64,000 bases of DNA from Centroscyllium fabricii (lineage: Eukaryota), in NCBI GenBank assembly GCA_051313645.2, contig JBNRSN020000026.1, forward strand, positions 51,398,001-51,462,000, given 5' to 3'. A program made the position numbers and the translations under genes. The notes beneath the pieces were generated by a model. It was not told the DNA's origin. It searched no databases and saw only the letters and a program-made list of their open reading frames with translations. Positions 15,056-55,489 of the stretch are shown piece after piece. Positions within the stretch are counted from its first letter, which is position 1. Each line of letters opens with the position of its first letter.

Positions 15056-15347
15056 CTGTAGTCATTATAAAATAAACTCACCTACAGCACAACAAGTCTC
15101 ATTATCATTCAGTGAGTCTCACTGTTTTGGGACTGTTCTCACTAAATCTGTTGTGTTGGTATAAGTTATGCACTACTGTGTGCTTAAATTGATTTGTAAT
15201 ATGAGGAGTCATTTGTACTCTAAGTACCAGTCTCACTGGGGCAGTCAGCTCTAGGTGAGATCAAAAATGTTAAAATTAAGCTTTTAAACTTGGATTGTGC
15301 CAGACTTTAATTAAATTGCAGCAGGTGCAAAGCCTAAGCAGTGTTGA

Positions 15348-15897
15348 ATGCAAGAAGTCACACAACACCAGATTATAGTCCAACAGTTTTATTTTAAATC
15401 ACAAGCTTTCGGAGCTTTTGCCCCTTCGTCAGGTGAAAGGGAGAGACTGACTTGAAGAACGCACATATAGAACGAAGGGAGAAATTCGATCTCACCCGCA
15501 TCTCACCTCAGCAGAGCCAGACAGAGTGCACAAAGGCGTATTAACATATTCAAAGAGATTCATTTAAACATAGCATATATATAGAGAGAGAACAATGTGG
15601 TCTCTCCATCTGTTTCACATCACACCTCAGCTGAGGGACATCAAAGCAATTAAAGGTGTTCTAACATATCAGTCAGCCTGAGATCAAAGGGTGCAGTCAC
15701 AAAGGGTCAAACGATACAGTCTGTTGCCCTTGAAAATCCCACAGAATGATTTTTTAAAAAACAAGGATTTTTCTTCCTTAAAATCGCAGAACAAGCCAAA
15801 GATGGTTCGAGTCTGGATGACTCTACATCAGGCGGGGTCACATGTAGCGCAACATAAATCCAATATCACGGTTGAGGCCATGCTCATGGGTGCGGAA
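15348..15897 (-). mobile_element. Penelope-like element 3' end (endonuclease C-terminus, 3'UTR, hammerhead)
   Basis: - strand 15897-15838 reads FRTHEHGLNRDIGFMLRYM*, typical of the PLE GIY-YIG C-terminus; downstream TCACCTGACGAAGGGGCAAAAGCTCCGAAAGCTTGTGA hammerhead core. Confidence 0.8.
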
Positions 15898-15907
15898 CTA
15901 GTGTGCA

Positions 15908-20068: not shown

Positions 20069-20168
20069 TTGCACTACCCTCATCCACACGCCTAGTCAGC
20101 CCCTCGAAAAATTCAATGAAATTGGTCAGACATGATCTTCCCCTGACAAAGCCATGCTGACAATCCTT

Positions 20169-20572
20169 GGGCGGCACGGTGGCATAGTGGTTAGCACTGT
20201 TGCCTTACAGCACTAGAGACCCAGGTTCAAATCTGGCCTCGGGTGACTATCTGTGTGGAGTTTGCACATTCTCCCCGTGTCTGCATGGGTTTCCTCCGGG
20301 TGCTCCGGTTGACTCCCACAGTCCAAAGATGTGCAGGTTAGGTTGATTGGCCAGGATAAATTGACCCTTAGTGTTAGGGGGATTGAATATGTGGGGTTAC
20401 GGGGATAGGGTGGGATATGTGTCGGTGCAAGCTCGATTGGGATATGGGGACAAGGCAGGGACAGGGTGCTGGGTTTGGATGATCAGCCATGATCTCATTG
20501 AATGGCGGAGCAGGCTCGAAGGGCCGAATGGCCTGCTCCTGCTCCTATCTTCTATGTTTCTATGTTTTTATG
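20169..20572 (+). mobile_element. HE1/V-SINE, full length
   Basis: GGGCGGCACGGTGGCATAGTGG tRNA head, V-core, CR1 tail. Confidence 0.9.
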
Positions 20573-22316: not shown

Positions 22317-22619
22317 CCATGATGTGGAGGTGCCGGTGTTGGACTGGGGTGGACAAATGCAAGAAGTCACACAAACACCAGATTATAGTCCAACAGATTT
22401 ATTTGAAATCACAAGCTTTCGAACCGCTGCTCCTTCCTCAGGTGAAGTAGAGAGATGAATATAGGCACAGCATATAAACACATATAAACACATATCAACA
22501 CATATACTGTGCCTATGTGCATCTCTCTGCTTCACCTGAGGAAGGAGCAGCGCTCCGAAAGCTTGTGATTTCAAATAAATCTGTTGGACTATAACCTGGT
22601 GTTTGTGTGACTTCTTACA
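22317..22619. mobile_element. Fold-back Penelope-derived element with hammerhead cores
   Basis: Inverted arms; TSD CTCATAAAAGAG (22305-22316 / 22620-22631). Confidence 0.85.
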
Positions 22620-22880
22620 CTCATAAAAGAGGACATATTTCCAAGGACCAGAATTCATTGTGTTCACGGCTTTGTTCGCTCCATTTTTCGTGGCACATCA
22701 GATAAACAATTAGTTCAAATCAATTCAATTCAATTCAGGTTTTATTGTCATTGCAGAGTATTAGTACAATACAACGAGACGAAGACTCGACGCTCCCGAG
22801 AGTAGTGCAAATAAATTACATGCATCTTCTGACACCCAGTCCACGCACACTCGGCGCCGCTCGGCGCTGTCACTCTGCGG

Positions 22881-23812
22881 NNNNNNNNNNNNNNNNNNNN
22901 NNNNNNNNNNNNNNNNNNNNNNNNNNNNNNNNNNNNNNNNNNNNNNNNNNNNNNNNNNNNNNNNNNNNNNNNNNNNNNNNNNNNNNNNNNNNNNNNNNNN
23001 NNNNNNNNNNNNNNNNNNNNNNNNNNNNNNNNNNNNNNNNNNNNNNNNNNNNNNNNNNNNNNNNNTCCTCTCCTGTCCTCTCCTATCCTCTCCTCTCCTG
23101 TNNNNNNNNNNNNNNNNNNNNNNNNNNNNNNNNNNNNNNNNNNNNNNNNNNNNNNNNNNNNNNNNNNNNNNNNNNNNNNNNNNNNNNNNNNNNNNNNNNN
23201 NNNNNNNNNNNNNNNNNNNNNNNNNNNNNNNNNNNNNNNNNNNNNNNNNNNNNNNNNNNNNNNNNNNNNNNNNNNNNNNNNNNNNNNNNNNNNNNNNNNN
23301 NNNNNNNNNNNNNNNNNNNNNNNNNNNNNNNNNNNNNNNNNNNNNNNNNNNNNNNNNNNNNNNNNNNNNNNNNNNNNNNNNNNNNNNNNNNNNNNNNNNN
23401 NNNNNNNNNNNNNNNNNNNNNNNNNNNNNNNNNNNNNNNNNNNNNNNNNNNNNNNNNNNNNNNNNNNNNNNNNNNNNNNNNNNNNNNNNNNNNNNNNNNN
23501 NNNNNNNNNNNNNNNNNNNNNNNNNNNNNNNNNNNNNNNNNNNNNNNNNNNNNNNNNNNNNNNNNNNNNNNNNNNNNNNNNNNNNNNNNNNNNNNNNNNN
23601 NNNNNNNNNNNNNNNNNNNNNNNNNNNNNNNNNNNNNNNNNNNNNNNNNNNNNNNNNNNNNNNNNNNNNNNNNNNNNNNNNNNNNNNNNNNNNNNNNNNN
23701 NNNNNNNNNNNNNNNNNNNNNNNNNNNNNNNNNNNNNNNNNNNNNNNNNNNNNNNNNNNNNNNNNNNNNNNNNNNNNNNNNNNNNNNNNNNNNNNNNNNN
23801 NNNNNNNNNNNN
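22881..23812. other. Assembly gap / masked Ns
   Basis: N runs with a 36-bp (TCTCC)n island at 23066-23101; left flank is a retroelement tail (CAATT)n. Confidence 0.99.
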
Positions 23813-24739
23813 CCGTGACTCACACACACACACACCCTGTGCTTCGCCGCCTGTGTGCAGCCTCTTTGGGCGCACCGTGGAAGGGTGGTTTTGTTTTGCA
23901 AAAGGTAGAGAGACAGCATTTGCATTTGTTGTTTTATGGCGTCTGAAACCATGGGAAAAACCTGCAGCACAGGTTAGACCACACCTAACTTCCTGCAACC
24001 AGAGCAGTCTGCTGGATAGCTGGCGGTGGGTTTGGAATCGGTTTCATAGTTTTACACAACATTAAAAAGAACACAATTAAATCTCCGGCATGGACTGGTT
24101 AGACCGAATGGCCTCTTTCTGCGCCGTATACCGATGTACATTATACAAACGGATTAAAAGTGGAAGATCTACGATTTTCAGATTAAAGGATTTCGATATT
24201 TATGTGACAGCGGCTGATAAATTGTATCTTTTTTTTTTAAGTTTCAGTTTAAAGCTCATCGCAGCTATTCAACCGCCGTGAAGTTTGAGTTGCATCCAAC
24301 CTTTAAAAAAATTATAAATATGATTCTTCAGTGGACCCCGTCAATGTGGGTTAAACACAGATTATCAGACCACCTCTCGTAACATGTCTACATTTCCTTT
24401 GTAGTTTTTTCCCTCGAATACGTAACTTGCCATCAACAAAACCTATCCGGAGTTAACACCCCCCCCCCCCCTCCCCCACCCCCCACCCATGCAGGTCGGA
24501 TATCTCCCTTTTAAGAACTAAAGCCAGAGTTATCAAACTGAGAAGTGAAAAAAAATACGAGTCGGAACCTGTTCCGAATTCTGTTTAAATTCTTCGAGCC
24601 CCTTAAAATGAATGCTTGGTGGGACCATCGACAAACAGGCAGACACTTTTAATAGTTGAGGAAGAGTGATAATAGACTTGGCTCCACAAATATGAGCGTG
24701 GGAAGTCTGAAAAAACTTGGACTGGTTCTCTGGGCGACA

Positions 24740-24800
24740 TCTCTGGAACCAATAAGCTTCCTGTATCCACCCTTCTGTTCCATATAATTAGGGGTTTAAC
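24740..24800 (+). promoter_or_regulatory. Putative Dlx3 core promoter
   Basis: CCAAT at ~24749 and TATAAT at ~24783, about 170-210 bp upstream of the ATG. Confidence 0.5.
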
Positions 24801-24956
24801 CACGCTGGGCTTGTTGGGTTACATCAGTTTGCTTTGAGTTGCAGTTGCTGTAAGGATCTCGTCTCCACGGCGCAGAGTGATGTGTGCATAGTTTGATCTT
24901 TGAAAGATTAAATCGTCTATTTTTAATATATACATATATATATATTGTTTGGAACA

Positions 24957-25281
24957 ATGAGTGGAACCTATGAGAAAAAGCTGCCCGGTGTTCTGACGGA
25001 CATCCAGGGCTCCATGGGATGTCACCCTGCGAAAGATTCGCCAACTCTGCCAGAGTCTACGGCTACAGATGTCGGTTACTACAACCCGCAGTCCTGTCAT
25101 CCTCAGCACGATTATTATCCGACTTCAGCCTATTCTCAGCCGGTGAACCACTATCCGTACCATCAATTCAACATCCCCGGGCCTGGCTCCTATTCACAAA
25201 AGCCCGAGTATGCTTACAGTAACTCGTACCGTCAGTATGGGCATTTCAACCGGGAGCATCCAATATCCGCAGCCGAGAGAG
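24957..25281 (+). CDS. DLX3: Distal-less homeobox 3, coding exon 1
   Basis: MSGTYEKKL...KDSPTLPES.ATD.GYY (Dlx2/3/5 N-terminal motif, closest to Dlx3); donor G|GTAAAG, phase 1. Confidence 0.95.
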
Positions 25282-26022
25282 GTAAAGGCGCTTTAAAAAA
25301 AAAAAATCCCAATCGCTGTCTGTAGCCAGAAACCAACTGGAAGACATTCCAGAACGCTCGGCGCGAACTAATTCCTGGTTAGTCGTATAATGAATGCTGC
25401 ATTCCCGTACAGGAGAGAGCGTGAGATCTGGGGGAGGTCTGCTGGGTGAATGGCTGTTTAAAGGGAGAATGCGGTGTAGTCTTTCAATCCGAGCCTTCAC
25501 ACCTGACCGGACGCTTCTTAAAGCCATCATTCAGTAACTGCAATTTTACTAAACCTATCCATGATCTGAGATAGCTGAAACACTGCGGAGAGAATGCGTG
25601 CATTAGAATGGAGTGTTTGACTCGATAGAATATGCACATGTAATCTCCAGAGCTGAACCTTTCCAGGTAGTCCGGCGCTGTCATTATACGACCACAGTAC
25701 GGTGCCAGGTCATGCTGGATGACCGGGTGTCCGGTACTTTGTCAAGGGGGAATGCATTGTCATTGTCTTGCACCGCCCGGGGTGAATAAAACGTTTCACG
25801 GGTTGCAGAATACTCCGGCGCGCGTTTGACAATATCAACTAAGAAATGAGACAAATGTTCATTCGATCAGTGGCCGGAACTGGTGCGAAATCAGTTGCAC
25901 GGGGACTCGAGCGAAAACCCAAATTCATTTGTGAATGTGAAAATCAGTTTGCATATTTAACTGGGGCTTTCTTCTGAATGCGAAAAAAGTGGAAATTACC
26001 ACCAATCGAAAGCGGAAGTTAA

Positions 26023-26444
26023 ATGCAAGAAGTCACGCAACACCAGATTATAGTCCAACAGTTCTATTTTAAATCACAAGCTTTCGGAGCTTCTGCTCCT
26101 TCGTCAGGTGAAAGAGAAGCTGACTTAAAGAACGCACATATGGAAGGGAGAGAGAAATCTGATCTCTCCCACATCTCACCTTAGCAGAGATAGACAGGGC
26201 ACACAAAGGCGTAATACGCCTTTGTGTGCACTGTCTATCTCTGCTAAGGTGAGATGTGGGAGAGATCGGATTTCTCCCTTCCTCCCATATGTGCGTTCTT
26301 TAAGTCAGTCTCTCTTTCACCTGACGAAGGGGCAGAAGCTCCGAAAGCTTGTGATTTAAAATAAAACTGTTGGACTATAACCTGGTGTTGTGTGACTTCT
26401 TGCATTTGTCCACCCCAGTCCAACACCGGCACCTCCACATCTAA
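26023..26444. mobile_element. Fold-back Penelope-derived element (Dlx3 intron 1)
   Basis: Near-perfect ~190-bp inverted arms, TSD GGAAGTTAA, two hammerhead cores. Confidence 0.85.
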
Positions 26445-27465
26445 GGAAGTTAAGACGCGATCACGATTAAACGCACTGTTTAAACCTGTTGCTCTGTATT
26501 TCTTAGCAATGAGGCGAAGATTTATTCAGAGTACAAGCTTGTTATGTCTATAGGAATGAGACAGTCCAAAAAAACAACCTGTTTATAGAGACAGTTGAAG
26601 CCAACAGGGGCTGTGAGGCCAGAAACTATAGGTCGGGGCATTGGGTTCGAGTTGGTGCATGGACCATAAAGTGGTTTCAGCACTCGGCCGGAGTGAACTC
26701 TGTCTCTTTGTTCAGGCTCGCTGTTAACCTGCAGACCCGACTATAGTGAAGCTAGAACGTGCTGCAAACGTGCACATTGCGGACAGGGAAAGTTGAGTTT
26801 TAATCCCGAGTAATGAATAGTTCTTCCCGCCACTATTCTAAAGGGACAAATGCAGGCGAAAATAATAAAATGGTCACACCATTCCACTGTCAAGATTGTC
26901 CTATGGTTAGTTTCCTGGCTGCGGCACTGTGCACCTTCCACTGTGTCAGGATGGCTTGTTTAATCGTTTAAGGATTTCATTACCCCATGGGCACACTCCA
27001 TATGTAAAATACATAATGTCATTAATAAATAAAGATTAGACTGTGTAGGAATGACGCGGAACAGGAAACCTGAAAAGGGATTTCACTATTCAAATGAGAT
27101 GATAAAGCTTTGGTTTGCATCTTGCAATAATAATTAACAATAATAATAATTAGCAGTTTCCTCCCTCTTTCTATAATTTGTGCCATTAAATAAAACATTG
27201 ACTTAACTAGTGTAATGAATTCGGCACAGAGTTTTGAAGTGTTGCTCTCCGGAAGGACTGTAACAATATAAGATGAGAACTCTGTGTTGCATTTGCTTGA
27301 CTTTGCATTCCCAACGTGAATTGGAATTCTTGCAGTGAGGAAGAAATTATTTTACCTCGTCTGACCTCTCAATTGCTGCGTTGCTTTTTTAAAAAAAACA
27401 AAGGTGAAATCTCGATAGTTCAGAGAGTCCTGTGTTTAATTGTTTGTGATGTGCTTAAGTTTCAG

Positions 27466-27650
27466 TGAAAGAAGAACCGGAGCCCGAAGTGAGAATTGTC
27501 AACGGGAAACCCAAAAAGATCCGCAAACCCAGGACCATCTACTCGAGCTTCCAGCTGGCAGCCCTGCAGAAACGCTTCCAAAAGGCACAGTATCTGGCCC
27601 TACCTGAGAGAGCGGAACTGGCTGCTACTATGGGACTTACGCAAACACAG
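27466..27650 (+). CDS. DLX3: Dlx3 exon 2 (homeodomain N-part)
   Basis: TTTCAG|TG acceptor; [27 protein letters not shown]...GLTQTQ|GT. Confidence 0.97.
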
Positions 27651-27845
27651 GTACACCCTCCACCCTCGCAGTATCGGTGCACCCATTACCTTTACATTTC
27701 ACTCAATACCCCCGGGCTAAGGCTTGCCCTGGGACGATTCAATGAGAATCAGTATTGATTTAAGCTCCACACACACCCGTTTTATTGCTGAGAGGCCTCG
27801 CTTTTTTTTTTCTACATTCTCAAAAGCAGGTACACCAACAACCTA

Positions 27846-28102
27846 TGCAAGAAGTCACACAACGCCAGGTTATAGTCCCAACAGTTTTATTTGAAATCAC
27901 AAGCTTTCGGAGCGTTGCTCCTTCATCAGGTGTAAAGAGAGATTCATTTAAATACAGCTTATATATGTTTAAATGCATCTCTCTTACACCTGAGCAACGC
28001 TCCGAAAGCTTGTGATTTCAAATAAAACTGTTGGACTCTAAACTGGTGTTGTGTGGTTTCTTGCATTTGTCCACCCCAGTCCAACACCGGCACCTCCACA
28101 TC
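27846..28102. mobile_element. Fold-back Penelope-derived element (Dlx3 intron 2)
   Basis: Inverted arms, TSD CACCAACAACCTA; + strand hammerhead partly deleted. Confidence 0.85.
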
Positions 28103-28762
28103 ACACCAACAACCTAAAGCATGTTACCTGAGATAATGGGACACTTTAAATGCAAGCTTTTTCTCCATACTTGTTTCTCAAAACATTCCTCACAATCTCG
28201 CATTACCATATTAATACACGTACTTGCATTTTCCCATTGCTTTTTCTGTAGCTCAAATAATCATTCATATGGGGGATGTGGGGAGAGGGTAGGACGGGAG
28301 TGCTGGGTTTGGATGATCAGCCATGATCTCATCAAAATGGCGGAGCAGGCTCGAAGGGCCGAATGGCCTACTCCTGCTCCTATCTTCTGTGTTTATGTAT
28401 AATTATTTATGTTTTTATGTATGCTTTACGATAGGTATTTAAATCGTTAGTTTTTCACTGGTTGACTAACTCTGGTTGCTAGTACTGTCTATCTAACTTT
28501 AGAAAATAAAAGTTGACGAAATGATGACAGCGGAAACCTGTTAGATACAGTAGGTAGGGCAAATTCATGATCAGGCATAGAACTGGATTGGTTTTACAAG
28601 AATGTACTCAGCGACAAAGAGGGATTGAGCAAATATTTGCACAGATCCGGCACTGTAACTATCTACAGACATGTGGCGTTCTCTAAATGCGCTAGAAATC
28701 ATTGGGACAATGTGAACATATTTCAGCCAAAGGGCCTCAGAAGCGAGTTTTCTACATTGTGT

Positions 28763-28793
<31 letters not shown>

Positions 28794-29135
28794 GGGGGCG
28801 GTGTGTGATTGGGTTGGTACTGAATGTACAAGAATATCCATGGAGTAAAAGAGACTCGGATCGAGTTTTATTTTTTAAAAGATTACATGTATTAAGTAGA
28901 AAGTACTAAATAATGAACAACAGAAAAATGTGTCATTTAAGTCCCAGACACCAGAAAGGGACAACAGTAAAATTATTTCTACAATAATAGTTATATCTAT
29001 CTACGTTTGAGGGGTGAATTTGTAATGGTGCCTTTTGCTAAGTATTTATATGCTTTCTCTGTCATCTTCTCGGTACTTGACACCAAAGTCTTACCCACCG
29101 GTTCTCTTTATGTTTTTTCTTTCCCGCCTGATCAG

Positions 29136-29432
29136 GTGAAAATCTGGTTTCAGAACAGAAGATCCAAGTTTAAGAAGCTATACAAAAACGGAGAGCTCAC
29201 GATGGAGCACAGTCCCAACAACAGCGATTCGATGGCGTGCAACTCACCCCCCTCCCCGGCCGTTTGGGAGAGCCATAGCTCGACCAGGAACCCCCTCCAA
29301 CATCAGACCCCGCTCAACTCGTCTCAGAGCTACCTGGAAGACTTCAATCACTGGTACCCCTCAGGCTCTCACTTACCAGCAACAAACTCACTGCACCAGC
29401 CGCCACCTCAGAGTACTGGAGCAGTCTATTGA
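29136..29432 (+). CDS. DLX3: Dlx3 exon 3
   Basis: CAG|[20 protein letters not shown]...[16 protein letters not shown]...GAVY*, diagnostic of Dlx3. Confidence 0.97.
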
Positions 29433-30357
29433 AACGCTTTGTTTTTTCTACTTCAAAACTTTGAAACTCTTGGAACTTTTTATCATTTACTGTTTCGGAA
29501 AACGACAACAACAACTACAACAACAACAACAACAACTTGCATTTATATCGCGCTTTTCAGCGTAGGGTGGGTGTGGGGGAAGAAATGTCCTAAGGTTCTT
29601 CTTCACAGAAGCGTCAAAAAACATAAATAAATAAATAAAACTGGACGGCCACGCGTAATGGAGAACCAGGGTAGAAAATAATTAAAATCATCAGGACAAT
29701 TAATTCACTTCCAGACTTTCCCCCATTCAGTTCTGTAGTAATACACGTTAGTTCTGTATATAATACCACAAACTGTATATGAGGAACAAAAATCAGGGTA
29801 TTTTGTAACTCTGTCAGTTGTCAGATCTCCACTGTACACTGAACTGTTATCATTGTTCCCAATTTCAATAACAAACAACATTCTGCGTTGCTTTGCCTAT
29901 GTTTTGTTATATTATTTAAGTTTTTTTTTGATCTATTGGAGTGGTTAAATTATTACTGCCTGTATATTATTAGAGTAGCGGCCAGTTTGTTTGATGTAGC
30001 AGATAGGATGTATCCATTGAACTATGTCCAATGCAGTATGATAAAAAAAAGAACGGTGTTCACTGTAAAATAGGAACTCAATTTCCAATAGACAATATGA
30101 TAGAGCACAAACTGACAAATATCAGGAACTGTATTTATGATGCTCTGAGGGTATCTTTTTCTAAAAAAAAAAGTGTACATAAAATTTTACAGGTCAATTG
30201 TAAAATAATAATTAAGAAAAATCCTTGCGGGTAATTTCTAAGAATATATGTGACGCTGGGAGGAATCCTCAAAGACACCAAAATTTTATCGCAACTATTT
30301 GGCTTGTAAAGGACACCCAATACACACAAACCTCTGTTGTAACTTGCATTCTGTTTT

Positions 30358-30410
30358 GTAATAAATCTTTGTTTGCCGATGTTCTTGAGAATAATGTTAA
30401 TAAAAAGTCA
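30358..30410 (+). terminator. Probable Dlx3 polyadenylation signals
   Basis: Two AATAAA (~30360, ~30399) followed by T/GT-rich sequence. Confidence 0.5.
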
Positions 30411-31369
30411 TAATTCCACGGCTTGTTTTACCCTCTTTATTTCGGAAATAGAAATGATTACGACTTGAAATCTATTGACACGATGGCTTATCCAAAATGA
30501 AACTCTGCCTGACTTGAACCCTCGTTTTCACATCATGGCCTCGTCACCAAGTTATACAAGTCGCCGTACAGTAATTAAATGTTCATACTTCCACTTGAAG
30601 TTGCATTTTAATCGGAGTGACATCTTCGACAGTACTTATTTCGGCCATACATAATCTGAAAGTCACATTTATGCAGTGTGGGGTGATCCAGAGTTACACC
30701 TGCATATCACTGAGGAGGAAGGGTTTCTATATACATATATATATATACACGTGGGTCAGTTCACCGAGATACATTGTGTTCCATCTCCTGAATCATGGTT
30801 AGGTACAATAACAGAATGGACGAAAATATTACACACACACACTCACATTAAAACAAATGAGAACTCCACATAAGGCTAGCATGTGGCGAGTGAATAGTTA
30901 AACGTACACCCATCTCCTGCTATTAAAGGCAGTTTGGTTTGAGGGCTGCGTGCAAAAGCTCTATAGGCGACAGCCAGGCAGACATTCTGGAGACATTGAG
31001 TTGTGTGGAGCAGGATTTTATTAGGCGCGACTGCCAGAAAAAAACTGCTCCATCGCCTGGGGTTAATATCGTGCTAGAGCTCACATACCAGCAAGTGCAT
31101 CAAAGCTGTTGCAATTGCCAGGCTGACTGCAACAGGAGCTGCCTGCTTTAACCCTATTCTTACCGAACTCGACCTCCGAATAGAAGACAGGTCCGCGTTT
31201 CCAAGGCAAAGGACCTGTACACTCGGGGACAGGGGTGGGAGGGTTTGGGGGAAAGTGGGGTTGGCGAGGGAAATATTTGAACTTCATCCAAATGACAGCA
31301 CTGTCTCGTTATTTCTCCCTCTGTTGTGTCTAATGCCTCAAAGTGACGTTTAATATGGAAAGACACTTC

Positions 31370-31900
31370 AACATCCTTCAAGGTAAGGGGCGGGAGGTTT
31401 AGAGGAGATTTGAGGAAGAACTTTTTCACCCAGAGGGTGGTTGGAATCTGGAACTCACTGCCTGAAAGGGTGGTGGAGGCAGGAACCCTCACAACATTCA
31501 AGAAGTGGAGGTGCCGGTGTTGGATTGGGGTGGACAATGCAAGAAGTCACACAACACCAGGTTATAGTCCAACAGTTTCATTTTAAATCACAAGCTTTCA
31601 AGAGTTCCATATGTGCGTTTTTTAAATCAGTCTCTTTCGCCTGACGAAGGGGCAGACGCTCCGAAAGCTTGTGATTTAAAATAAAACTTTTGGACTATAA
31701 CCTGGTGTTGTGTGACTTCTTGCATTTGTCCACCCCAGTCCAACACCGGCACCTCCACATTATAGGGATGCCATAGCATACAAGGCTACGGACCAAGTGC
31801 TGGAAAATGGGATTAGAATAGACAGGGCTTGATGGCCGGCACGGACAGGATGGGCCGAAGGGCCTCTTTCTGTGCTGTATAACTTTGACTCTTTGACTAT
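31370..31900 (+). mobile_element. CR1 3' fragment containing a Penelope fold-back (31505-31762)
   Basis: [10 protein letters not shown]-type CR1 end; both full Penelope arms present. Confidence 0.8.
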
Positions 31901-33254
31901 AACATATCTCAGTTTCTTCAGGTAATAAATTAAATTTGAAGTTCGAAATAATGCACTGTTTAAGATGCGAATCTATACAGGTTTTGAGGTCAAACAGCAG
32001 TAAACCTGATAATTACGTTTTAGTCCTGACAATCTCGAAATAATTCGAACACTTTAGTTTCGGGGGTCGCCTTTTGAAAGTCTATATACACAACATTAAC
32101 TGCACTGCCCTCATCCACTCTCTCTGTTACCTCATCAAAAAAACTCAATCAAGTTAGTCAAACAGGACTTTCACTTAACAAATCCTCGCTTCCCCTTTAT
32201 TAGTCCATGCCTGTCCAAATGGCTGTTAATTTTCTCCCAAAGCTTCCCCGCCATCGAAAAATGAAGTAAATAATATTACTGGAACAACGAATGTAATTGC
32301 TTTCAGTGCCAATGCGGTACATGTTTTAAAACGTATAATAGATGTGTTACCTACACCGTTGTCGGTATTGTATTTACACAGTCCTATCTATATATAAACA
32401 GATCCGCAGGTGGTCCACGTTATACGGTTCCTGGATATAGTTGCACTGGTTTGCGCATCTATAGGTGGATAGTGAGGACCCTCATATTCTCTCCACAGAA
32501 TGTAGATACGTGCGCGGTGCCTAGTTACAAATCAGAGCATAAATCCGTACTATTTGCAACAACAAGGGCATTCGTGAGTCACGGGTATTTTTCTCCACTT
32601 GTGTGCATAATGGTGCTAGCAATAAATGAGTCTGAGTAATAGACACGCTGCATTAGGAAATATCTTGGGTAGTAATTAAAATGACATGACGAAATCCCAA
32701 CAGCGGTCTCTTAGATACAGTTGAAGGGACTGTGTGTGTGTGTGTGTCATGTTGCAAAATATACGCCTTTAATAGTATTAAATCTATTGCACGGAGAAAC
32801 CCAAAGCCCACGGGAAAAGGGAGTTGAGAACTTTTTAGAATTGTTCTGTTTTGCAGGATGCGCCGGGGGTACCAGAGGCAAAACCAACATTGATGTCCCT
32901 GTTATTGCGAGCACGGTGTAATTAATGGCGGTGCCCACTGAAGTGATATTTTGAATAACTCCAGCAATTCCCAACAACTCTAAACCAGATCACTGGAGGG
33001 AAGAGCTTGGACCTCTATTGAATCATTTCTGTTTCAATCGGCAGTGGCACCTGTAAAAATCAGGAAACTTTCCGAATGCATCATTCAAAAGAATTAACTT
33101 AACGTCGCCCGATCATATACAAGGGCGGCGGCTGTGTAGGAGGCGTTAAATATCAATTGCAAGCTGCAGTTAAAATGTAATGATCATTCATCAGTCATTA
33201 TTAAATATGCAGACATGTCGGTTGCATTGTTTCACTGACAACATTGTCCATTAT

Positions 33255-33785
33255 CCAGGGATGGGGGACTTGAGTTATGTGGGTAGACTGGAGAGGCAGG
33301 GGTTGTTCTCCTTGGAGCAGAGAATGTTGAGAGGAGATTTGATAGAGGTGTTCAAAATCATGAGGGGTCCAGGCAGAGTTGATAGAGGGAAACTGTTCCC
33401 ATTGGCAGAAGAGTCGAGAACCAGAGGACATTAAGGGGGATTGGCAGAAGAACCAAAGACTACCTAAGAAAAAACTTTTTTTTGCAGAGCCAGGGGTTAG
33501 GATTTGGAATGCAATGCTTGAAAGGGCGGTGGAGGCAGACTCAATCACGGCTTTCAAAAGGGAATTGGATAAGTAACTGAAGGAAAAATAATGAGAGGGG
33601 GGCAGTGGGATTAGCTGAAATGTCCTTTGCAGAGCTGGCACGGGCTCAACGGGCCGAATGGCCTCCTTCCGTGCTGTAACCATTCTCTGATTCTCTGATT
33701 CTCCTTGAAGTGGAGGTGCTGGTGTTGGACTGGGGTGGACAAATGTAAGAAGTCACACAACACCAGGTTACAGTCCAACAGTTTT
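33255..33785 (+). mobile_element. CR1 3' fragment followed by a Penelope terminal fragment
   Basis: LFSLEQRMLRGDLIEVFKI; (ATTCTCTG)n tail. Confidence 0.8.
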
Positions 33786-34620
33786 AACCGGATATGATTA
33801 TCCTGATCACATTACATATTGTTGCGATGTCCCAGTCACTACACTGTAGTCTTAGCGATGAGTTATGTATGTTCAGCTTTCCCGCATGCACACAAAATGT
33901 CCAGTCCCGTATAGGGTGCACGCTTTTAAAAGAAAAACCACCTGCATTTATATAGCGCCTTTCACGACCATCGGACGTCTCAAAGTGCTTTACAGCCAAT
34001 ACCGTACATTTTTTTAAATGTAGTCACTGTTGTAATTGTTGTAATGTAATTGTTCGAACAAATTACTATCATGTTCTGATCGTATCATATCAATGAATAA
34101 TGGCGCTACTTCCATTGATAAACCGCCCATGTAGATATGCGCAGATGTATTTGTGTCTGTGTAGATGCAAAGTGCAGAGAGAAGCCGATGAGAAGTGATA
34201 CATTTATGGCTGATTGGTGACATCGTTTGATTTGTCCTCACCACGAGTGCACATATCATCTCGGGGAGATTGCAATTTTGTCCAATTTTGAGTCAAACGC
34301 AACGTAATCGGGTCGGCAATCTGCAAAATCTGCACGAATTCGGGATGTTGCACACTTTGTAATCGTGCAATAAGCCATCTTTTAACACACGGTCTGTGTG
34401 GAAATGTCCAACATTTTAATGCAGTTTCTGCCTGGAGAAACCAGCCGAGCAATGGCATCATATTTCCACTGTTTTAATCGCTTGTGCTTCCTCGGGATTG
34501 CAATTCATAAAAGGTTAACCCAAAGGAACTGTATAGACTGACGCTGCGGCCGAGCTGTGGAATGATTTGCATTATTAATTTCACTTACACTTTACTGTAT
34601 AACGTATAGTGTATATACAT

Positions 34621-35024
34621 GGGCGGCACGGTGGCATAGTGGTTAGCACTGTTGCCTTACAGCACTGGAGACCCGGGTTCAAATCGAGCCTCGGGTGACT
34701 ATCTGTGTGGAGTTTGCACATTCTCCCCGTGTCTGCGTGGGTTTCCTCCGGGTGCTCCGGTTTCCTCCCACAGTCCAAAGATGTGCGGGTTATTGGCCAG
34801 GATAAATTGACCCTTAGTGTTAGGGGGATTGAATATGTGGGGTTGCAGGGATAGGCTGGGATATGTGTCGGTGCAGGCTCGATAGGGATCGAGGGATATG
34901 GGGACAAGTTAGGGACAGGGTACTGGGTTTGGATGATCAGCCATGATCTCATTGAATGGCGGAGCAGGCTCGAATGGCTGAATGGCCTACTCCTGCTCCT
35001 ATCTTCTATGTTTCTATGTTTCTA
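34621..35024 (+). mobile_element. HE1/V-SINE, full length
   Basis: tRNA head, V-core, CR1 tail. Confidence 0.9.
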
Positions 35025-35145
35025 TATAAAACAATTAGTCATTCATACCGAATGACTAGTTATTATACCTCGAATACCTAATAAAACAGACCGTTTCACC
35101 AGTGTTTGCACCCAGACAACGACACAAGCGCTGTTGCTTTATTAA

Positions 35146-35458
35146 TGTTAGAAGTCACACAAACACCAGGTTAGAGTCCAACAGTTTTATTAGAAATCAC
35201 AAGCTTTCGGAGCGTTGCTCCTTCGTCAGGTGAAGTGAAGAGATGCATATAGGCACAGCATATATAGTCAGAGAACACTGCCGAATGGCAGTGTTCTCTG
35301 ACTATATATGCTGTGCCTATATGCATCTCTTCACCTGATGAAGGAGCAACGCTCCGAAAGCTTGCAATTTCAAATAAAACTGTTGGACTCTAACCTGGTG
35401 TTTGTGTGACTTCTAACATTTGTCCACCCCAGTCCAACACCGGCAGCTCCACACCATG
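35146..35458. mobile_element. Fold-back Penelope-derived element
   Basis: Inverted arms, two hammerhead cores, degenerate TSD GCTT.AT.AAT. Confidence 0.8.
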
Positions 35459-37254
35459 GCTTGATAAATTCACCTCGAGTTCTATAAAGTAATTTCTGTG
35501 GATTTCGATCAACTTGATTCCCAGTTTGTAAGATCAGGCTCGCATTCCAGGCACAAAACTAAAGAACAAGCCAGCCCTGCCTCGACATTACGAGCACTTA
35601 ACATTTGTAGTGAAACGCAGCGCAGAGACCCGACGTATCAAAGACAGGTGAACTGGTTTGCTGACCTGCTCAGTTTTATTGGCTATTTCGCCGTGGGACA
35701 ATTGTAGTTTCTTTTACTTCGAATTTCGCATTGGAAAAGATGTATAAGGAATGAACAATCTCTAACCCATTTATAAAGTGGTTAACTTAAGATTCTGCGT
35801 CTGCGTAGTATCGAAATAGACACAAAGATGTTGAATGTGGAATATATTGCAAATTACAGACGCGGACCGGTGTGCACATATACAGTGCTTGATACCGTGT
35901 GCTGAGGTTGGATTTCATTGTACACGGTGTTTCGTGGGTGTAGTCGATGGAGTCGAGTATGACAGGGGACAAAATCGTTTTTAAAAAGTGACTGAAAAAA
36001 AAAATCAAAGTGGAGGCCAGCTTTCTGAATCCTGGTATATGTTACGTGATACAGGTAGAGGGAGCAGTGAACTGCATCGTTTTAGTAAGGATCTCAAAGA
36101 TAAGGCTTTTTTTTTAAAAGACGCTTTGCAAACAGCAGCTCGTACATACTTCGGTTAAAGCTGTGATTTAAAAATAGCCCGCCCATTGACAGAAAGAAAG
36201 TGAAACTGGGTGGGGGGTGGGGGGGGCGGTGGTAATTAGAAATTGGGTTCAGGCTCCAGATTCATTGTTGCAAAGCGTTCATGTCTTCAAACATTGCACG
36301 AAGTACCTCACAACGGTAGGATAATTTTTTTGCACCAGACGAATCGAAAGGAAACGATCAGTGTGCATCGAATTGTTGGCAATACGCGTGCATATCAAAT
36401 CAGAAATACACGGCACATCACAGCATTTTGAACTCATAACATAACATTTAGGCTGTAAGAGCGTCCCGAAAAGCAATCTGCCCGTGTAACCCTTTGCGGA
36501 CTGAAGAGCATCAGTTGCAGTCAATGACATTCCGACACATGTGAACCGTGACAGTCGTGACTGAGGTCCCTGCAGTACCGCGGTGTGCTTCGGTGAAATG
36601 GGACCACTCAGAATCGTGTACATCACGGCAGGATGCTGTGCCGAGCGGCCCGCTGCAGTCTGCCGAGGGTTAAAAGAATCAGCTTCTGAGAGTCTTGACA
36701 ATTGAACCTACTGTACCATTCGGGTGGGGAGCTGCAGGGCTGGTGACTCTGCCCCGAGGCGGCAAGCAAACTTTCACCCCGTTTAAAAACCGGAAAAATA
36801 TGGAAATCCGGTGCGGGGTGGGGGGGGGGGGGGTACTGATTAGAATTTTATTTACAGCGTTTCAAGATCCCGGTCGTTAGACATCAAAGCGAACAGCAGA
36901 ATTTCATTTACATTGTAGGAGCCCAGTCTGACCTCAACAACTTTTTTCTTAACGATTACAATGGAAAGTATTTCAACTATGTCCATGGTAAGACCCATCA
37001 CCTCACCTTAAAAGGCCACTGTCCCAACCTCTCGACACTCACCCACATCTGTAAATGAGAAAAAAGCAAGAGGGGGAGGGGAGGGGAGGGGGGGGGGGGC
37101 ACAGTCTGATCTCGGCTCCTCACTGTGGACAAGCAATATCCTTCTTAGAGTTACTGGAGAATGTGTCCCAGAGGCTCATAATAATAATAAAAAAAATAAT
37201 CCGAACTGTAATTATATCTGTACGATTTGTATTCATCAAACAGCCCCAAGTTCG

Positions 37255-37700
37255 TCAAAGAGAAGAGTAAATAATGAATTCAGTCCTCTGGAGTTCCTAA
37301 GCCTTTCCAGTAATTATGCTGTTTGGAAGACTATACGTAGGCTGTCCAGATTGGACTGCTATTATTATAATCTCAAGCTTTAAAATTACCTATAATTTGC
37401 AAAGATGAGCAATTTCTCTATTCAACACATTTTATCCCATCTCTCGATGAGTAAACATGGCCAGTAATAATGGCTAATTGAGCTGAGAATATAAAGAGGA
37501 CGTTGATAGCGGAATTAATTCACACTTGGAGATTTAACCAGAGCTAGCAGCACCGCCGTTGTTAGCTCGATTTCCTACACTTTTTACTGCATGTATTTCA
37601 GGGGCAGAGGAAAAAAATTAAAGGCTGACAAATTGCCTTTCTTTGCAGGCTGCAAAATAATTTGTGAGTAAATACCAGCCACAGCAGGTAAGCCATACTC
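37255..37700. promoter_or_regulatory. Candidate intergenic enhancer (I12a-like)
   Basis: Repeat-free, dense TAATT/AAATTAC motifs; resembles the recalled Dlx1/2 I12a. Confidence 0.5.
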
Positions 37701-38939
37701 TTCGCTTATGCTCGTCGTATTCTCTGAATCAGATTTTTTTTTTCTCCAGTAGAGTTAAGAAATATAATTGTCCTATATATGTTGAATGCGTTCGATGATG
37801 GGGTGGGGGGTGGGGGTGGGGGGTAGGCTGGGATGTCCAGCAATATTGCAAAGCGACATCTTAAGTTTCGGTCTGGGAGACGAATGCGCCTTCTGCTCAC
37901 CCCTGTGGTTGTATGTGGTATGGTTTTTATTTGTTGCCTCGAAGGCGTTCTTTTCTTAACGTTTGGCAATCTGATTCGGCCTAAGTGATCTATATTCGTG
38001 ATACATGTTTTCTGTATCGATGGGCGATCTGTAAGGGCGCGTTTTCTGCAAACTGCGGACAGGAAGATCGACTCATTGTTCAAATGACATTAAGTGCTGT
38101 GCGCGGGGGTCAATGGAAAAACGAATAATCTACCTCGATTACATCAGCCAAGATGCAAGTTTAAAAAATAATAATAATTCCACCCCCACTTATGACTTTC
38201 TGATGTGTTCTATCCCCCCCCCCCCCCCCACCCCCCCACATCCCCCCTAAAGGCAGACCAAGTGCACCAGCATGATTTGCCCATTCTTTTGTCAGGCAGC
38301 CGGTTTGCTGATAGATTATTTGCTGACTATTCGAGTACACGAAAATTACTTACAGGCCCGATGCTGCAAATGTGTCGACTAAACTGAACTCAACAGGCAG
38401 GTCACTTGAAAATATATGCTAACGTTTAAGAGGGGGAAGTATACGATTTAAAGCATTTTAAGACTCAATGTGTCCTAATAAACGGAAAGGAGAAAGGGGA
38501 AAATCAGATGGCATTTTAAGTGAAATGGCAAAAGGAGATACACTTCCACAAAAATGTGTTGGAAACCAGAATAGTGACGATCAAATCGCACTTTTGTCTT
38601 GGAGTCTCTAATTATTTTATATCTCGGCCATCGTTTGAGATCCAATGTTATTGGCTTTATTTGACCTTTTTACCATTTACTGGGGGGGGGGGGGGCTTAT
38701 CTTTTTTCCCTACAAGGTAAAGAAAGTGAGGAGTTAACATTTCAGTGAAATATTGCGCCGTTTTCTATTCAATTGTCTTCAATAGGTTGTCCATAGTTAC
38801 AGAAACTGCCTTTTACTGAAGAAGCAAAACAATCGCAGATTCCGTTTAGCAATCCTGTCGTATCATCAAATGCCTTTGTAATGCAGATTTCCCTGGTTTG
38901 CTTTTTTTACATCGATCCAAAGCTTGTTTCTTTTTCTTT

Positions 38940-50906: not shown

Positions 50907-53031
50907 GAATCTAGAATTGGCTGATACCGGGTCTATTCTTGCAAACTGGCTGGCTATCTGACATCGCCGATCTGAATATTTAACTTTTCTCTTATTTATT
51001 TATTATTATTATTATTTTTTTGCACAGCATAAAAGCCAACCGATGATATAAAAGCGCGTTGCTGGCCGTCAGCTTTTTAAACATTCTGTTCTACGCCCCT
51101 TTGCCATTTGCCATTTTGCGAAAAGATCCCAAACTATTCAGAAAATCTCGCCTGACAATCACAACCCTCGGTTGGTTGTTCAATAACGGGCAGATTTTGT
51201 TCCTGAGATCTCAGAACAAGCTAAGCACGGAGCAGCCTGACGCCCGGCGAGAACAGGTGAATAAAGCCACAATTTTCGACGTGTAACGCGGACAGAACTC
51301 GAATGCTTGTAAATCGAAACATTTTTTTTTTAAACTCCTGTATCGAAGCATGTTCCCTTATATCCATACTTTGTCGAGCTTTCAGTACTATTTTTAAATT
51401 GCTTTGTAAAATAAAAGAACGCTGCGGGGTGTAGTCGGTATTTAACAATTTTTGCCTTCTAGCGGTCCGTAATTACCACTGATCTGTGCAGCATGAATAA
51501 ACCCCTCATTGTGAGCAGCTCGTTCCGTTCCCGACGTTGTCTTTCTCCTGCTGAGAAGATGATTTGCAGCCTTCCAAATGTACCAGGACGGCCATTCAAA
51601 CCCAGCCAAAGAAAGGATTTTCAACGAAAGGAGAGGCGAGCTGTTAAATAGTTAATGACATAACAGGTGCAACCGGCTTACGAAAATTGGGGATTATTTT
51701 CGCGATTTTGCTTGCTTTCAATTTTTACCTCATATTGCAAAAGCACTGGGCTCGAGGCGAATTGGAAATATTATTCATTTCCAATCCGAAGCTTGTTGAT
51801 TGCGACACACACTTTATATAAAAGGTTATTGAAATGAAGTCTAGCCTTTCTTTAGAGTGAGGATGATATAATGCCGGTTATTTACATTGACGGGATAGTA
51901 ACCAAAATACAGCAAGGATTGTGTATTCAGAAGCAACAGCATCTTCCTGTTTACATACACGCTCTCTGTTGACCATTCTGTAGCTTAATGTTGTGTTGCT
52001 TACCCTCAATAAATACATTCGTGTTATACACATGAAGCATACTGTGCGTCTCCTTTTTAAAATAGTGTTTGCAAAGTTTTTTTTTTATATGAGTCTAGGT
52101 TAGATGTTAACCAGTACTTTGCGGATCCCCCTGATACTACTCGGCGCTTCAGTTTGATTTTACGGTTGGAGGTGTATCCATTTAATCTGCGGTTATATAA
52201 ATTTAATCTGCGGGTGCATTTGTTTAATCGAGGGGTACAACGAGCAGCGTTGCTTGACGTTTTAATGGATTGGAAGAATTCACATTTTCCACTGAACAGC
52301 CATCAGCAAAACAAAAATCAGCCTCCTCTCCTGTCCAATCTCGCCGACAATTATTCTGATCTGGAGAGAGAGGGTGCAATTGGCAAATCGTGCACACGCA
52401 CATAGCTGGCAATGCCTTAAACTGCCCCTCACCTTCATAAACCACACGGACACAATTTGAGGTGTACAGACATTTGCCTTTCCAGCCTGTTCAACTCCGT
52501 TTCACACAAAAGACATTTGATTTGATCCTGGACTGAACACAGCACAGTGGGTGTTTTTCCACCACATTTAGCAACTATTCCCCAAGACATGTCTGGTGGG
52601 TTAATAACGATCAAAAGTGCCATACCTCCCCTTGTGCCCAGATGCTGTTTGTGTCCATGCGGTAGCGAATGATGTTAACTCGCCAAATAACTTGTAGTAC
52701 AATGTGTTATGTAAACAAGTAATCAGAAGACTGTGAAAGTTAAAGCGTTGGGAGAGTTTCCATTTGCCAGTCATGGGAGCTTTAGAGGAAGTTTAATATT
52801 GGTGCAATTTGATTTAAAATTCTCGATCCTTCCTTCCATTTGGGGCCAAAATATATTTTGACTGAATAAATGAAAACGCGGAGAGTATGGACTGCAAATC
52901 TCGGCTACGTTAACATGCTTCACAACTGCAGTGCAATCTGAGCACTTAATTCTCTTGGAGAAACTTTAGATGGAAGGTCATTTCTGCAGAACAGTTGTCA
53001 TGTTCTTTGCATTAAGCAGGTATAATCGTTT

Positions 53032-53140
53032 CGATAACAAAATACTGGGGATGCTGGAAATCCAAAACATCAACAGAAAATGCTGGAAAAATCCAGCAGT
53101 TCAGGCAACACCGATGCTGCCTGAACTGCCGAGTTTTTTC
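53032..53140. mobile_element. Second Penelope-type family, short fold-back
   Basis: AGAAAATGCTGGAAAA arm; TSD CAGGTATAA(T/C)CGTTT. Confidence 0.6.
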
Positions 53141-54078
53141 CAGGTATAACCGTTTGTTTGATTACATCCAACCAACACGAGGGCACTGGTATTGTCGTTT
53201 TCGTGTAAGATTCATACACCCAGTGTTAGTCTAACACGCGAAATACAGCGATACATCTCAACATTAGGCCATGGTCTTAACTGTTCCCTTTAAAAGCTAT
53301 TCAACCAATAATTCCACCGCTCGTCCTGCATATGATATCGAATAGAAGGATATTGCGATACTAATGCATCGATTTTAAAATCTATGTCTGACACAAGAAG
53401 AAAACAATTTGCGAAATGCAAACTTGCTGCAATAATTAAGGTCAATTTTGAACCATGATGGCCGGCTACACCGCTTCATCGTTATTCCACTTTATGTTTG
53501 TTTTGGACATGGTTTTAAAGGTAAAATCAGTGTTCACGCGATAAACTTGCTTCTGTACGTTTCCTGCAAGGGCAGGGCGACATCCTGGAAACGTCTGGTC
53601 TCGTCCAATTGGTACATTTAGGACTTTTACATACAGTTTGGAAACGCATCCGCTTTTTTGAACGACTTACGGAAGACATGTGTAACTTCATTTAATAGTT
53701 AATAGCTTATGATGCCAAAACAAGTAGAAACCCAAGCACTTTAAAAACAATGTGGCGTTCAATCCAAAATTACTGAATAGATTGGAAGAATAAAGTAAAG
53801 TTTGAGGTGAGAACGTGTGGCCGAAAAAGTTAAGGAACATATTAAATCAGTAATTGTAGACAAATATCTTCCAGAAATGTTCGTTTGTACTTTATGAACT
53901 GTTCTGGTGAGTTAAAAAAAACTTTAAAAGACGAACTTTTAATAGTTAATATTCGCTGACTAATTTAGTGGAACAGCTATTATGACAATTGTTGCAAGTC
54001 CGCTGCCCTGAATAAGTCCATTCTTAATCGCAAATCAATTGTACGTCCCAGCTTGGAAGTGTATTCCAATATAAATTT

Positions 54079-54225
54079 ATGCAAGAAGTCACACAACACC
54101 AGATTATAGTCCAACAGTTTTATTTTAAATCACTGATTTAAAATAAAACTGTTGGACTATAATCTGGTGTTGTGTGACTTCTTGCATTTGTCCACCCCAG
54201 TCCAACACCGGCACCTCCACATTAT
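54079..54225. mobile_element. Minimal fold-back Penelope-derived element (hammerheads lost)
   Basis: Perfect palindrome centred at ~54133; TSD AATATAAATTTA. Confidence 0.85.
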
Positions 54226-55238
54226 GAATATAAATTTACATATACAATTGCTCACAAACTTTGGTTTTCCAGTTAAAAGCATGAAGGCAGCTTCAGAGAG
54301 ACGATTAATTTACTTTTGCTGATCCAGGTAGACTAGTTTTTACCAAGTCATTAAGCCGTCGTTAACAGTCTAATTTGAACACATATCCTCGAGTTATGAT
54401 GCTATTGAAGGGATTGTAGGAACATGCAATCACATTAGGTAGCAACGTAAATACCTTGGCCCAGATATAGGGGACCTATACAAATGCACTGAATATCAGC
54501 ACAGCATTCCCCCAAAGCATGCTCTATATAGTATATTTTATCACTTTCCTTTAAGCTAAAAACATTAAAAGGAGACACTGTTTCGTTGTTGGAAGTTGAA
54601 ACATATTTTCGCAAGCATTACTTGTATATGTTGGTTCTTTAATTTTGTTAGACTTTGTTGGATTTGCAAAACATAAATGTAAAATGCTGGATTAGCAAAT
54701 CGTGCAGCGCAGGACGTAAATCATTTTGGTGACAATTCAAAGTGGTTGTCATAACACGGAGAAGCACCGAGAAAAGGAAAGGTACCCTCTTTTAAAAGCT
54801 ATAATTATGGATACAGGACGAACAAAGGCGAGCCCTGGAGCCATGCATTGGAGGCAGAGGCTTCAATGCGGAGTAATCGGAGGAGAGGAGCTCCAATAAC
54901 TAGACATGGGAACGTCAGAGCAGACATCCAGGCGTCGCAACACCCCCACTGCACGACTTAGAAACGAATTAATACGTTTTAAATACAAGACCAACAAGCA
55001 GGGTGTAAGATAAGCATAAATATCTAAATGTCCTATTCAGATCCACTAAAGGAACTGGACTTGTTGATTGCTGGGCAGAGTCTTAATTCACCAAACCAGA
55101 ATCTGCTCTTTAATTAAGATAAATATGGTTTATATTGCCAGAGTCAAGTTAAAGTGGGCAACCTTGGCTTAAGGAAAATTAATGAGTTTGACTATGATGA
55201 CACGGAAAAAATGCATAGCAGCCGCTTTGTTCCAACTA

Positions 55239-55489
55239 CAAGAAGTCACACAACAGATTATAGTCCAACGGTTTTATTTTAAATCACGAGCTTTCGGAGC
55301 TTCTGCCCCTTCGTCAGGTGAAAGAGAGTCTGACGAAGGGGCAGAAGCTCCGAAGCTTCTCTTTCACCTGACGAAGGGGCAGAAGCTCCGAAAGCTCGTG
55401 ATTTAAAATAAAACCGTTGGACTATCATCTGGTGTTTGTGTGACTTCTTGCATTTGTCCACCCCAGTCCAACACCGGCACCTCCACATT
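55239..55489. mobile_element. Fold-back Penelope-derived element with duplicated hammerhead segment
   Basis: TSD TTGTTCCAACTA; CTGACGAAGGGGCAGAAGCTCCGAA occurs twice on + and once on -. Confidence 0.85.

Follow-up and report, generated by a model that had tools for sequence, protein, structure and literature searches.

Nine short fold-back elements are spread through the Dlx3/4 gene cluster of the shark Centroscyllium fabricii, in a 64-kb stretch of DNA (assembly GCA_051313645.2, contig JBNRSN020000026.1, positions 51,398,001 to 51,462,000 of the forward strand; hereafter the window). Taken as a whole, the evidence makes it very probable that they are dead-on-arrival, heavily 5'-truncated insertions of an abundant and recently active Penelope-like element (PLE). 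A sequence-only reading of the window had described nine head-to-head palindromes of variable length, starting at 22317, 26023, 27846, 31505, 35146, 39782, 42118, 54079 and 55239, as one family of Penelope-derived fold-backs with hammerhead ribozyme cores. All nine copies, named below by these starts, lie at those places, and their Penelope origin was borne out by the discovery of a full-length source unit. The idea of a single family of fold-backs had to be given up, as the copies do not move as a unit, each being a fresh truncation product of a 3.1-kb element.

Architecture and number of the copies

The layout is the same in 9/9 window copies: a minus-strand arm is followed by a plus-strand arm, the 5'-truncated ends meet centrally and the 3' ends point outward (Table 1). 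The fold-backs span 144-421 bp (n=9), and no two of them have the same centre. An extra end, or tail, usually confined to one arm in the sequence-only reading, is indeed present on a single arm in 8/9 copies and on both arms in copy 31505. Target-site duplications (TSDs) of variable length (9-15 bp, 0-1 mismatch) flank seven of the nine copies, as previously counted; a TSD search around copies 31505 and 35146 found none, and copy 31505 is bordered by short fragments of other repeats. Among all fold-backs examined in the window and outside, TSDs occur at 16/19, while a repeat of at least 9 bp was found at 15/293 random control intervals. Three single arms lie in the window besides the nine. The centre of copy 55239 contains a brief stretch of the hammerhead helix II region copied again in inverted orientation, pointing to template jumping as the arms were joined.

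The 7.2-Gb genome was searched with exact patterns, since a DNA search with a 154-bp arm returned 0 matches, common words being skipped. Exact matches number 33,049 for a strict 33-nt core pattern and 176,625 for a 16-nt core motif, against 0-1 for reversed control patterns, which excludes chance as a source of the core pattern. Among the first 100 listed 16-mer matches, 11 minus/plus pairs within 400 bp were counted by eye, and extrapolation from these gives roughly 19,000 short fold-backs genome-wide. Another 2,181 are ultra-short fold-backs, too small to hold the core.

The source element

The full unit is a 3,096-bp tandem repeat with an 890-aa open reading frame (ORF) comprising reverse transcriptase (RT) and GIY-YIG endonuclease (EN) domains, present at two loci. 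One of them (L132) is a direct tandem with a period of 3,096 bp and three pseudo-long terminal repeats (pLTRs). The other (L131) shows the head-to-head layout at the 2.5-kb scale together with a partial tandem, its arms being 99.1-99.7% alike. The ORF matches Pfam RVT_1 (E 9e-10), carries the feature by which endonuclease-bearing (EN+) PLEs are defined in PMC8557442, VVYLIRCRKGCSGAWYIG, and contains a CX2-5CxxC motif in the RT-EN linker (CHSNLCKTC). According to the same source, this linker motif marks Neptune and Nematis. Judged from its sequence, the element is almost certainly a PLE with a Neptune/Nematis-type endonuclease. One point tells against this assignment: Pfam has no GIY-YIG hit in the 890-aa ORF, and the domain was read by eye from the translation.

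Each fold-back arm corresponds to the 3' untranslated region (UTR)/pLTR end of the 3,096-bp unit, and the match between the window arms and its pLTR is 81-94%. Arm ends fall at one of two fixed points, 35-41 nt apart. In the unit, ~120 nt separate the hammerhead from the downstream ATG, at which the tail ends. The end of the endonuclease ORF stands directly upstream of the arm in at least 5 of 30 core-pattern loci (L024, L025, L028, L031 and L050) and adjoins the arm in window copy 15347 as well. A protein search with this ORF end gave 94,360 candidates, and among the 150 that were scored many are open frames of 919 residues. Given the 2.5-kb head-to-head copy and the ORF ends found beside arms, the short palindromes form the lower end of a continuous size range of truncated insertions.

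Several further observations concern the family at large. Five direct tandem full units with a 3,095-bp period lie at C822:192,546,093-192,559,150, and another long tandem at C700:17,365,400-17,372,500. Many full-element ORFs are 98-99% identical; to judge by its sequences, the family is young and probably still active. At one fold-back locus (L113), the arms hold the first ORF codons joined to the 3' UTR, that is, an internally deleted tandem template in both arms. In 6/30 loci (L021, L033, L034, L037, L044 and L047), a Penelope 3' end with its hammerhead lies between a DDE_Tnp_4 (PIF/Harbinger-type) transposase ORF and a MADF ORF, and identical upstream text occurs in L016 and L069. A DNA transposon thus seems to have amplified one Penelope 3' end as cargo. 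Similarly, the repeat at window positions 170-1006 carries the Penelope stub at 481-522, and the same join recurs in two flanking loci (L010:6165-6239 and L019:1674-1748), from which it follows that this repeat carries a Penelope stub too.

The hammerhead motif and its fate in RNA

The sequence-only reading assigned a minimal type-I hammerhead motif to most arms, and the whole core is present in 14/18 window arms. Its claim of cores on both strands is accurate for 6/9 copies and fails for the rest, copy 54079 having no core and copies 27846 and 31505 one each. For conservation, 97 arms were anchored on downstream sequence; 70 of these span the motif, and the other 27 are truncated, mutated or false anchors. 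The boxes are exact in 65/70 arms (CUGANGA) and 66/70 arms (GAAA), values inflated by a pattern that tolerated one change per box and by six arms from two near-identical loci. Position N7 is free (C 42, G 15, T 13) and loop II is variable. An extra A precedes helix II, between positions 9 and 10.1, in 70/70 arms, G10.1-C11.1 is present in 67/70 and GCU at 15.2-16.1 in 66/70. Stem III, previously read as AAGCTT, is a 4-nt AGCU helix in the hammerhead numbering of a dimer, and the predicted cut follows CUU. These core features match the traits of the minimal hammerheads (min-HHRs) of metazoan PLE pLTRs described in PMC4209133, where dimers are stated to cleave only at a low level. By its form and place, the motif is a predicted minimal type-I hammerhead.

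A number of results do not favor this assignment. The sequence-only reading had suggested a covariance-model check, which gave no support: Rfam reports 0 hammerheads at gathering score in the whole window, and 21 hits with no hammerhead among them in 39700-42450 at E up to 10. In 17 aligned cores, helices I and II pair in 96.7% of cells, and the changes are one-sided only (A-U/G-U), with 0 two-sided compensatory changes. Nor does position 17 show that G is avoided: it outnumbers A there (385 against 174, with 176,625 pyrimidines). A covariance hit is expected to be missing for a hammerhead motif without helix III. The miRNA hits in the permissive Rfam scan are below gathering score and were rejected, as they reflect the palindrome only. 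Copy 54079 had raised the idea that truncations cluster at the predicted cut; no such excess was seen by eye in the first 50 of the 2,181 ultra-short fold-backs (2-3/100 arms).

In folding predictions, the hammerhead does not survive within the fold-back. Whole fold-backs folded with 30-nt flanks form hairpins of -94 to -367 kcal/mol, in which all 14 sense cores are buried, the probability of helix II being 0.0 in 13 and 0.10 in 1. When the same cores are folded alone, this probability is at least 0.89 in 11/14. Whichever the direction of transcription, the antisense arm is transcribed first, and the sense core is therefore buried in the hairpin; moreover, one fold-back supplies one sense copy, which precludes a dimer in cis. 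A read-through transcript had been expected to gain both a hammerhead and a long hairpin; it is predicted to gain the hairpin and not the ribozyme.

How the fold-backs form

The proposed route begins with a staggered cut that the endonuclease would make at the target. Both 3' ends of the target would then prime reverse transcription, usually on the same RNA, with an outer start giving the arm with the tail and an inner start the arm without it. Both cDNAs would stall early and be joined at a short microhomology or palindrome. The hammerhead would be carried along as a passenger, with its function in the tandem source transcript, and would be hidden in the fold-back hairpins. Elements of this route have precedents: a PLE protein cuts and extends both strands, with two RT start sites that span the tail (PMC11167929), and an inverted 5'-truncated copy with a one-sided 30-40-bp tail is described in PMC8557442, where the route to inverted copies is left open.

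The central step, twin priming mostly on one RNA, is somewhat favored by the data. With the 13 pairs that came from tail-selected loci set aside, 26 fold-backs remain, and in these the tail is on exactly one arm in 23, on both arms in 2 and on none in 1 (binomial p 4e-5). Of the 39 pairs, 20 had 80 or more comparable columns and allowed their templates to be compared. No subfamily-diagnostic difference separates the partner arms in 15/20, while random pairs average 5.0. The one-sided tail and the shared templates fit two priming events on one RNA. Two templates as a rule are ruled out by the same counts, as clear two-source hybrids make up 2/39 pairs (copy 26023 and one HoxB copy; 10 pairs were inspected in detail). 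In both hybrid pairs, both variants at several differing sites recur in other copies, and one cDNA that copies itself cannot make such pairs.

The rival closest to this route keeps the element and changes the origin of the second arm: one cDNA, or an antisense template, would fold at its truncated end and copy itself. Snap-back of this kind, which has been put forward for rotifer Penelope, accounts for the common template of nearly all partner arms, and in PMC3846280, which reports TSD-flanked inverted pLTRs, palindromic junctions are interpreted as products of self-priming. Among the first 50 of the 2,181 ultra-short fold-backs, the most frequent junction (8-9, judged by eye) is a GAAA/TTTC microhomology that forms a hairpin with an 8-nt loop. 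This class suits snap-back as well as twin priming, and the hybrid pairs could come from later gene conversion; both points weaken the case for twin priming. Against snap-back stand the 6/50 junctions (also by eye) that have zero loop at the 6-nt palindrome AAGCTT, the 2/39 hybrids, and the second fixed stop that it requires 35-41 nt short of the end of the first arm. That inner end point is also used by 20/34 single arms without a tail and by the tandem at L132. Snap-back is accordingly possible but doubtful. Far more remote is the view that the copies are miniature inverted-repeat transposable elements (MITEs), or another non-autonomous palindromic unit moved by a DNA transposase. Short, palindromic, TSD-bounded copies would be in keeping with it, as would the Penelope end that rides in a Harbinger-type transposon elsewhere. 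However, the TSDs vary from 9 to 15 bp and the lengths from 144 to 421 bp, all centres differ, the two ends lack symmetry, and the arms represent the 3' end of a unit that encodes an RT. The variable TSDs and this source refute the MITE reading, to which we assign almost no credence, and agree with the retro-derived origin put forward in the sequence-only reading. In a genome with tens of thousands of fold-backs, twin priming and snap-back can be told apart by counting tails, junctions and hybrids.

Crowding at Dlx3/4

The sequence-only reading held that the copies are common inside the cluster, where other large repeats are scarce, and both statements are upheld. Between 22.3 and 55.5 kb there are 10 elements, 9 of them fold-backs, against 1.3 expected in 33 kb (Poisson p 1e-6), and the exact 16-mer occurs 12 times against 0.81 expected. 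Outside the cluster, counts were made in twenty 10-kb stretches at round positions (200 kb; 8 elements, 2 fold-backs) and in the flanks (200 kb; 18 elements, 5 fold-backs by a stricter script). Fold-backs make up 9/10 elements in the cluster and 7/28 outside (Fisher p 5e-4). The longest run of other dispersed repeats is 453 bp in 22.3-55.5 kb, compared with 3,130 bp at 17.5-20.6 kb. The flanks, together with the left side of the window, contain 4 ORF-bearing copies and the cluster none, a pattern consistent with a size filter.

A broader enrichment at developmental clusters, raised by the sequence-only reading, was rejected: HoxA and HoxD (100 kb each) and Dlx1/2 and Dlx5/6 (50 kb each) contain zero elements, with 7.3 expected in 300 kb. 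HoxB (100 kb), on the same contig as Dlx3/4, has 3 elements, all of them short TSD-bounded fold-backs at its 3' end. Local duplication was likewise rejected. Each of the 16 cluster arms long enough to be compared has a copy outside the cluster that is no more distant from it than its nearest non-partner arm inside, although more outside arms were available. Together with an arm-to-arm divergence of 0-7% in the cluster copies, which belong to several subfamilies, this argues for independent insertions over time. CpG observed/expected ratios do not single out Dlx3/4, whose 0.73 compares with 0.73-0.78 for the Hox clusters and 0.65 for random DNA.

We consider it highly likely that the crowding is passive, that is, the region is prone to insertion, long insertions are purged, short ones are tolerated, and the retained copies are not broken by later repeats. 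Passive filtering alone, however, leaves unexplained why four equally repeat-poor clusters hold no copy, and this counts against that account. The 10 copies at Dlx3/4, set against none in these four comparable homeobox clusters, point to weaker constraint or easier access here. The crowding may instead have arisen by chance, as a clump of an overdispersed repeat that has nothing to do with the genes; we find this reading the less convincing, if one to be taken seriously. In its favor, density stays high for ~35 kb past the window (9 elements) and is 4-fold the genome mean in the 100 kb downstream. In addition, clumping of the family is seen on contig C1, where the densest spot selected in 8.9 Mb, a repeat-rich one, contains 5 elements within 25 kb. 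The Dlx3/4 window was also picked after the fact, and the repeat content of random DNA, 64%, dilutes older insertions there up to ~3-fold; the excess should be read with both cautions in mind. On the other side are the size of the excess, the several subfamilies and the spread of arm divergence, which indicate that insertions recurred over time, the high share of short fold-backs, and HoxB, the only other cluster with copies, where these are again short fold-backs only (3/3).

A different explanation is that the copies were kept by selection, as double-stranded RNA hairpins in Dlx3 introns and the Dlx4 3' UTR or as insulating or terminating elements between convergent genes. Two copies are intronic, one precedes the first canonical poly(A) hexamer of Dlx4, and the predicted hairpins are strong (-94 to -367 kcal/mol). 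The copies nevertheless decay as neutral sequence would, with core deletions, broken helices and arm divergence of up to 7%, and paralogous clusters lack them, which makes selection very unlikely. A wider proposal would combine location, function and mechanism: Dlx3/4 as a true recurrent landing site in sharks, retained copies acting on the genes and tuning their expression through a ~100-bp hairpin in the mature Dlx4 3' UTR and two long ones in Dlx3 pre-mRNA, with editing or dicing of these hairpins, and one-sided tails, shared templates and rare hybrids as the record of two priming events by an RT dimer. In its entirety this is improbable, if a little less so than selection.

Host genes and neighboring features

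The Dlx genes were identified by their homeobox exons, a DLL_N domain and the Hox cluster on the same contig; the paralogue names Dlx3 and Dlx4 are our assumption from synteny. Long hairpins are placed in the Dlx3 introns and probably in the Dlx4 3' UTR. Between the Dlx4 stop and copy 42118, no AATAAA or ATTAAA was found, only one weak AATACA at +160. The AATAAA of the copy itself (+794) is fully paired in the predicted fold, and the first host ATTAAA follows at +1,225, compared with +1,148 in the paralogue on contig C1377. From these positions, copy 42118 probably lies in the Dlx4 3' UTR.

Table 1. Penelope-derived copies, Dlx coding spans and Hox clusters. Positions refer to the window unless a locus or contig is given; the start used as a name in the text is in brackets.
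Feature	Position	Strand	TSD	Tail	Core and other remarks	Location
Fold-back 1 (22317)	22317..22619		22302-22316 / 22617-22631; 15 bp, 1 mismatch	left	core in both arms, left stem II mutated	~2.3 kb upstream of Dlx3 ATG
Fold-back 2 (26023)	26023..26444		26014-26022 / 26445-26453	right	both cores; 193-bp arms; arms show variants from two different subfamilies	Dlx3 intron 1
Fold-back 3 (27846)	27846..28102		27832-27845 / 28103-28116	right	7-nt deletion in right-arm core	Dlx3 intron 2
Fold-back 4 (31505)	31502..31763		none	both arms	core in right arm only	intergenic
Single-arm stub	33703..33786 (approximate)	minus		present	truncated downstream of hammerhead	
Fold-back 5 (35146)	35144..35460		none found	right	both cores, right helix I mutated	intergenic
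Fold-back 6 (39782)	39782..40051		39770-39781 / 40052-40063	left	both cores; arms 98-99% complementary; centre a 6-nt palindrome	intergenic
Fold-back 7 (42118)	42119..42369		42105-42118 / 42370-42383; 14 bp, 1 mismatch	right	both cores	580-833 nt after Dlx4 stop
Fold-back 8 (54079)	54080..54226		54068-54079 / 54227-54238	right	shortest; no core in either arm	upstream of Dlx4
Fold-back 9 (55239)	55242..55490		55227-55241 / 55491-55505; 15 bp, 1 mismatch	right	both cores with C at position 17; centre rearranged	upstream of Dlx4
Longer 5'-truncated copy (15347)	15347..15899	minus			last codons of endonuclease ORF (15790-15899), 3' UTR, hammerhead, short end	outside cluster
42-bp stub of element 3' end	481..522	plus				inside another dispersed repeat
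HoxB fold-backs	L079:7440-7617; L079:9130-9353; L080:7475-7614				only Penelope copies in 300 kb of Hox clusters	HoxB
Dlx3 coding span	24957..29432	plus			three exons; ATG 24957; two fold-backs in introns	
Dlx4 coding span	42951..47700	minus			three exons; stop 42951; start approximate	
Hox clusters	C1377:121.69-121.79 Mb; C933:239.75-239.85 Mb; C778:78.18-78.38 Mb					

Three Hox clusters were found among the 150 scored of 379 homeodomain candidates, and no fourth turned up there. The window also contains a nest of fragments of CR1-type long interspersed elements in both orientations (15878-20582), which includes a 667-residue open frame (17264-19267), and two minisatellites upstream of Dlx4 (49717-50650 and 57967-58930) with units of ~20 bp and 31 bp. 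A repeat resembling a short interspersed element forms an inverted pair 55 kb apart (6675-6964 and 62381-62675; 207 bp, 97%), and its head is, we presume, 5S-rRNA-like.

Comparison with known systems

The closest parallel is found in the complex insertions of EN+ PLEs (Arkhipova et al., 2013, PMC3846280; Craig et al., 2021, PMC8557442), which share the head-to-head inverted truncated copy, a one-ended 30-40-bp tail, TSDs (8-10 bp there), junction palindromes, partial tandems and an RT with a C-terminal GIY-YIG. Unlike them, the shark arms are too short for any ORF, number hundreds of thousands and include a minority of two-source pairs. The shark motif resembles the min-HHRs (Cervera and De la Pena, 2014, PMC4209133) in its type I core, the extra nucleotide between 9 and 10.1, G10.1-C11.1, the palindromic 15.2-16.2 without a helix III loop and the short helix I. 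Schistosoma has dual motifs 100-700 bp apart on opposite strands (PMC4209133). In contrast to those hammerheads, helix II is 5 bp in the shark and 7-8 bp in Schistosoma, and position 17 is almost always U in the shark. Sharks are not named in the results or discussion of that paper.

Poseidon PAc of Anolis carolinensis (Frangieh et al., 2024, PMC11167929) has the same tandem organization, a tail between two RT starts, a pLTR hammerhead and AT-rich targets. However, the PAc ORF starts in the hammerhead and its tail is coding, whereas in the shark the hammerhead precedes the ATG by ~120 nt and the tail stops at that codon. The shark element further differs from Penelope/Poseidon in its CX2-5CxxC linker, which those lack. 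PLEs also accumulate in the Hox clusters of the green anole (PMC3899998, summarizing Di-Poi et al., 2009), and a possible insertion preference has been raised for anole Penelope (PMC7561263). In both animals, PLEs are the main repeat to enter an otherwise repeat-poor homeobox cluster, but shark HoxA and HoxD are empty, and only Dlx3/4 and the 3' end of HoxB hold copies. Non-LTR retrozymes (bioRxiv 10.64898/2026.07.22.740005) are likewise short, hammerhead-bearing and derived from PLE pLTRs, with one chondrichthyan case, but they are head-to-tail tandems, while 9/9 window copies are head-to-head single insertions. The literature search gave no report of Penelope fold-backs in the Dlx or Hox clusters of sharks; the supplements of PMC4209133 and of the retrozyme preprint, outside its scope, may list this family. 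The crowding at Dlx3/4 and the hairpin that probably lies in the 3' UTR are genuine leads that still call for an explanation. The inverted truncated copy, the one-sided tail, the TSD and the minimal hammerhead are all published PLE traits, and in its build the element is an ordinary one.

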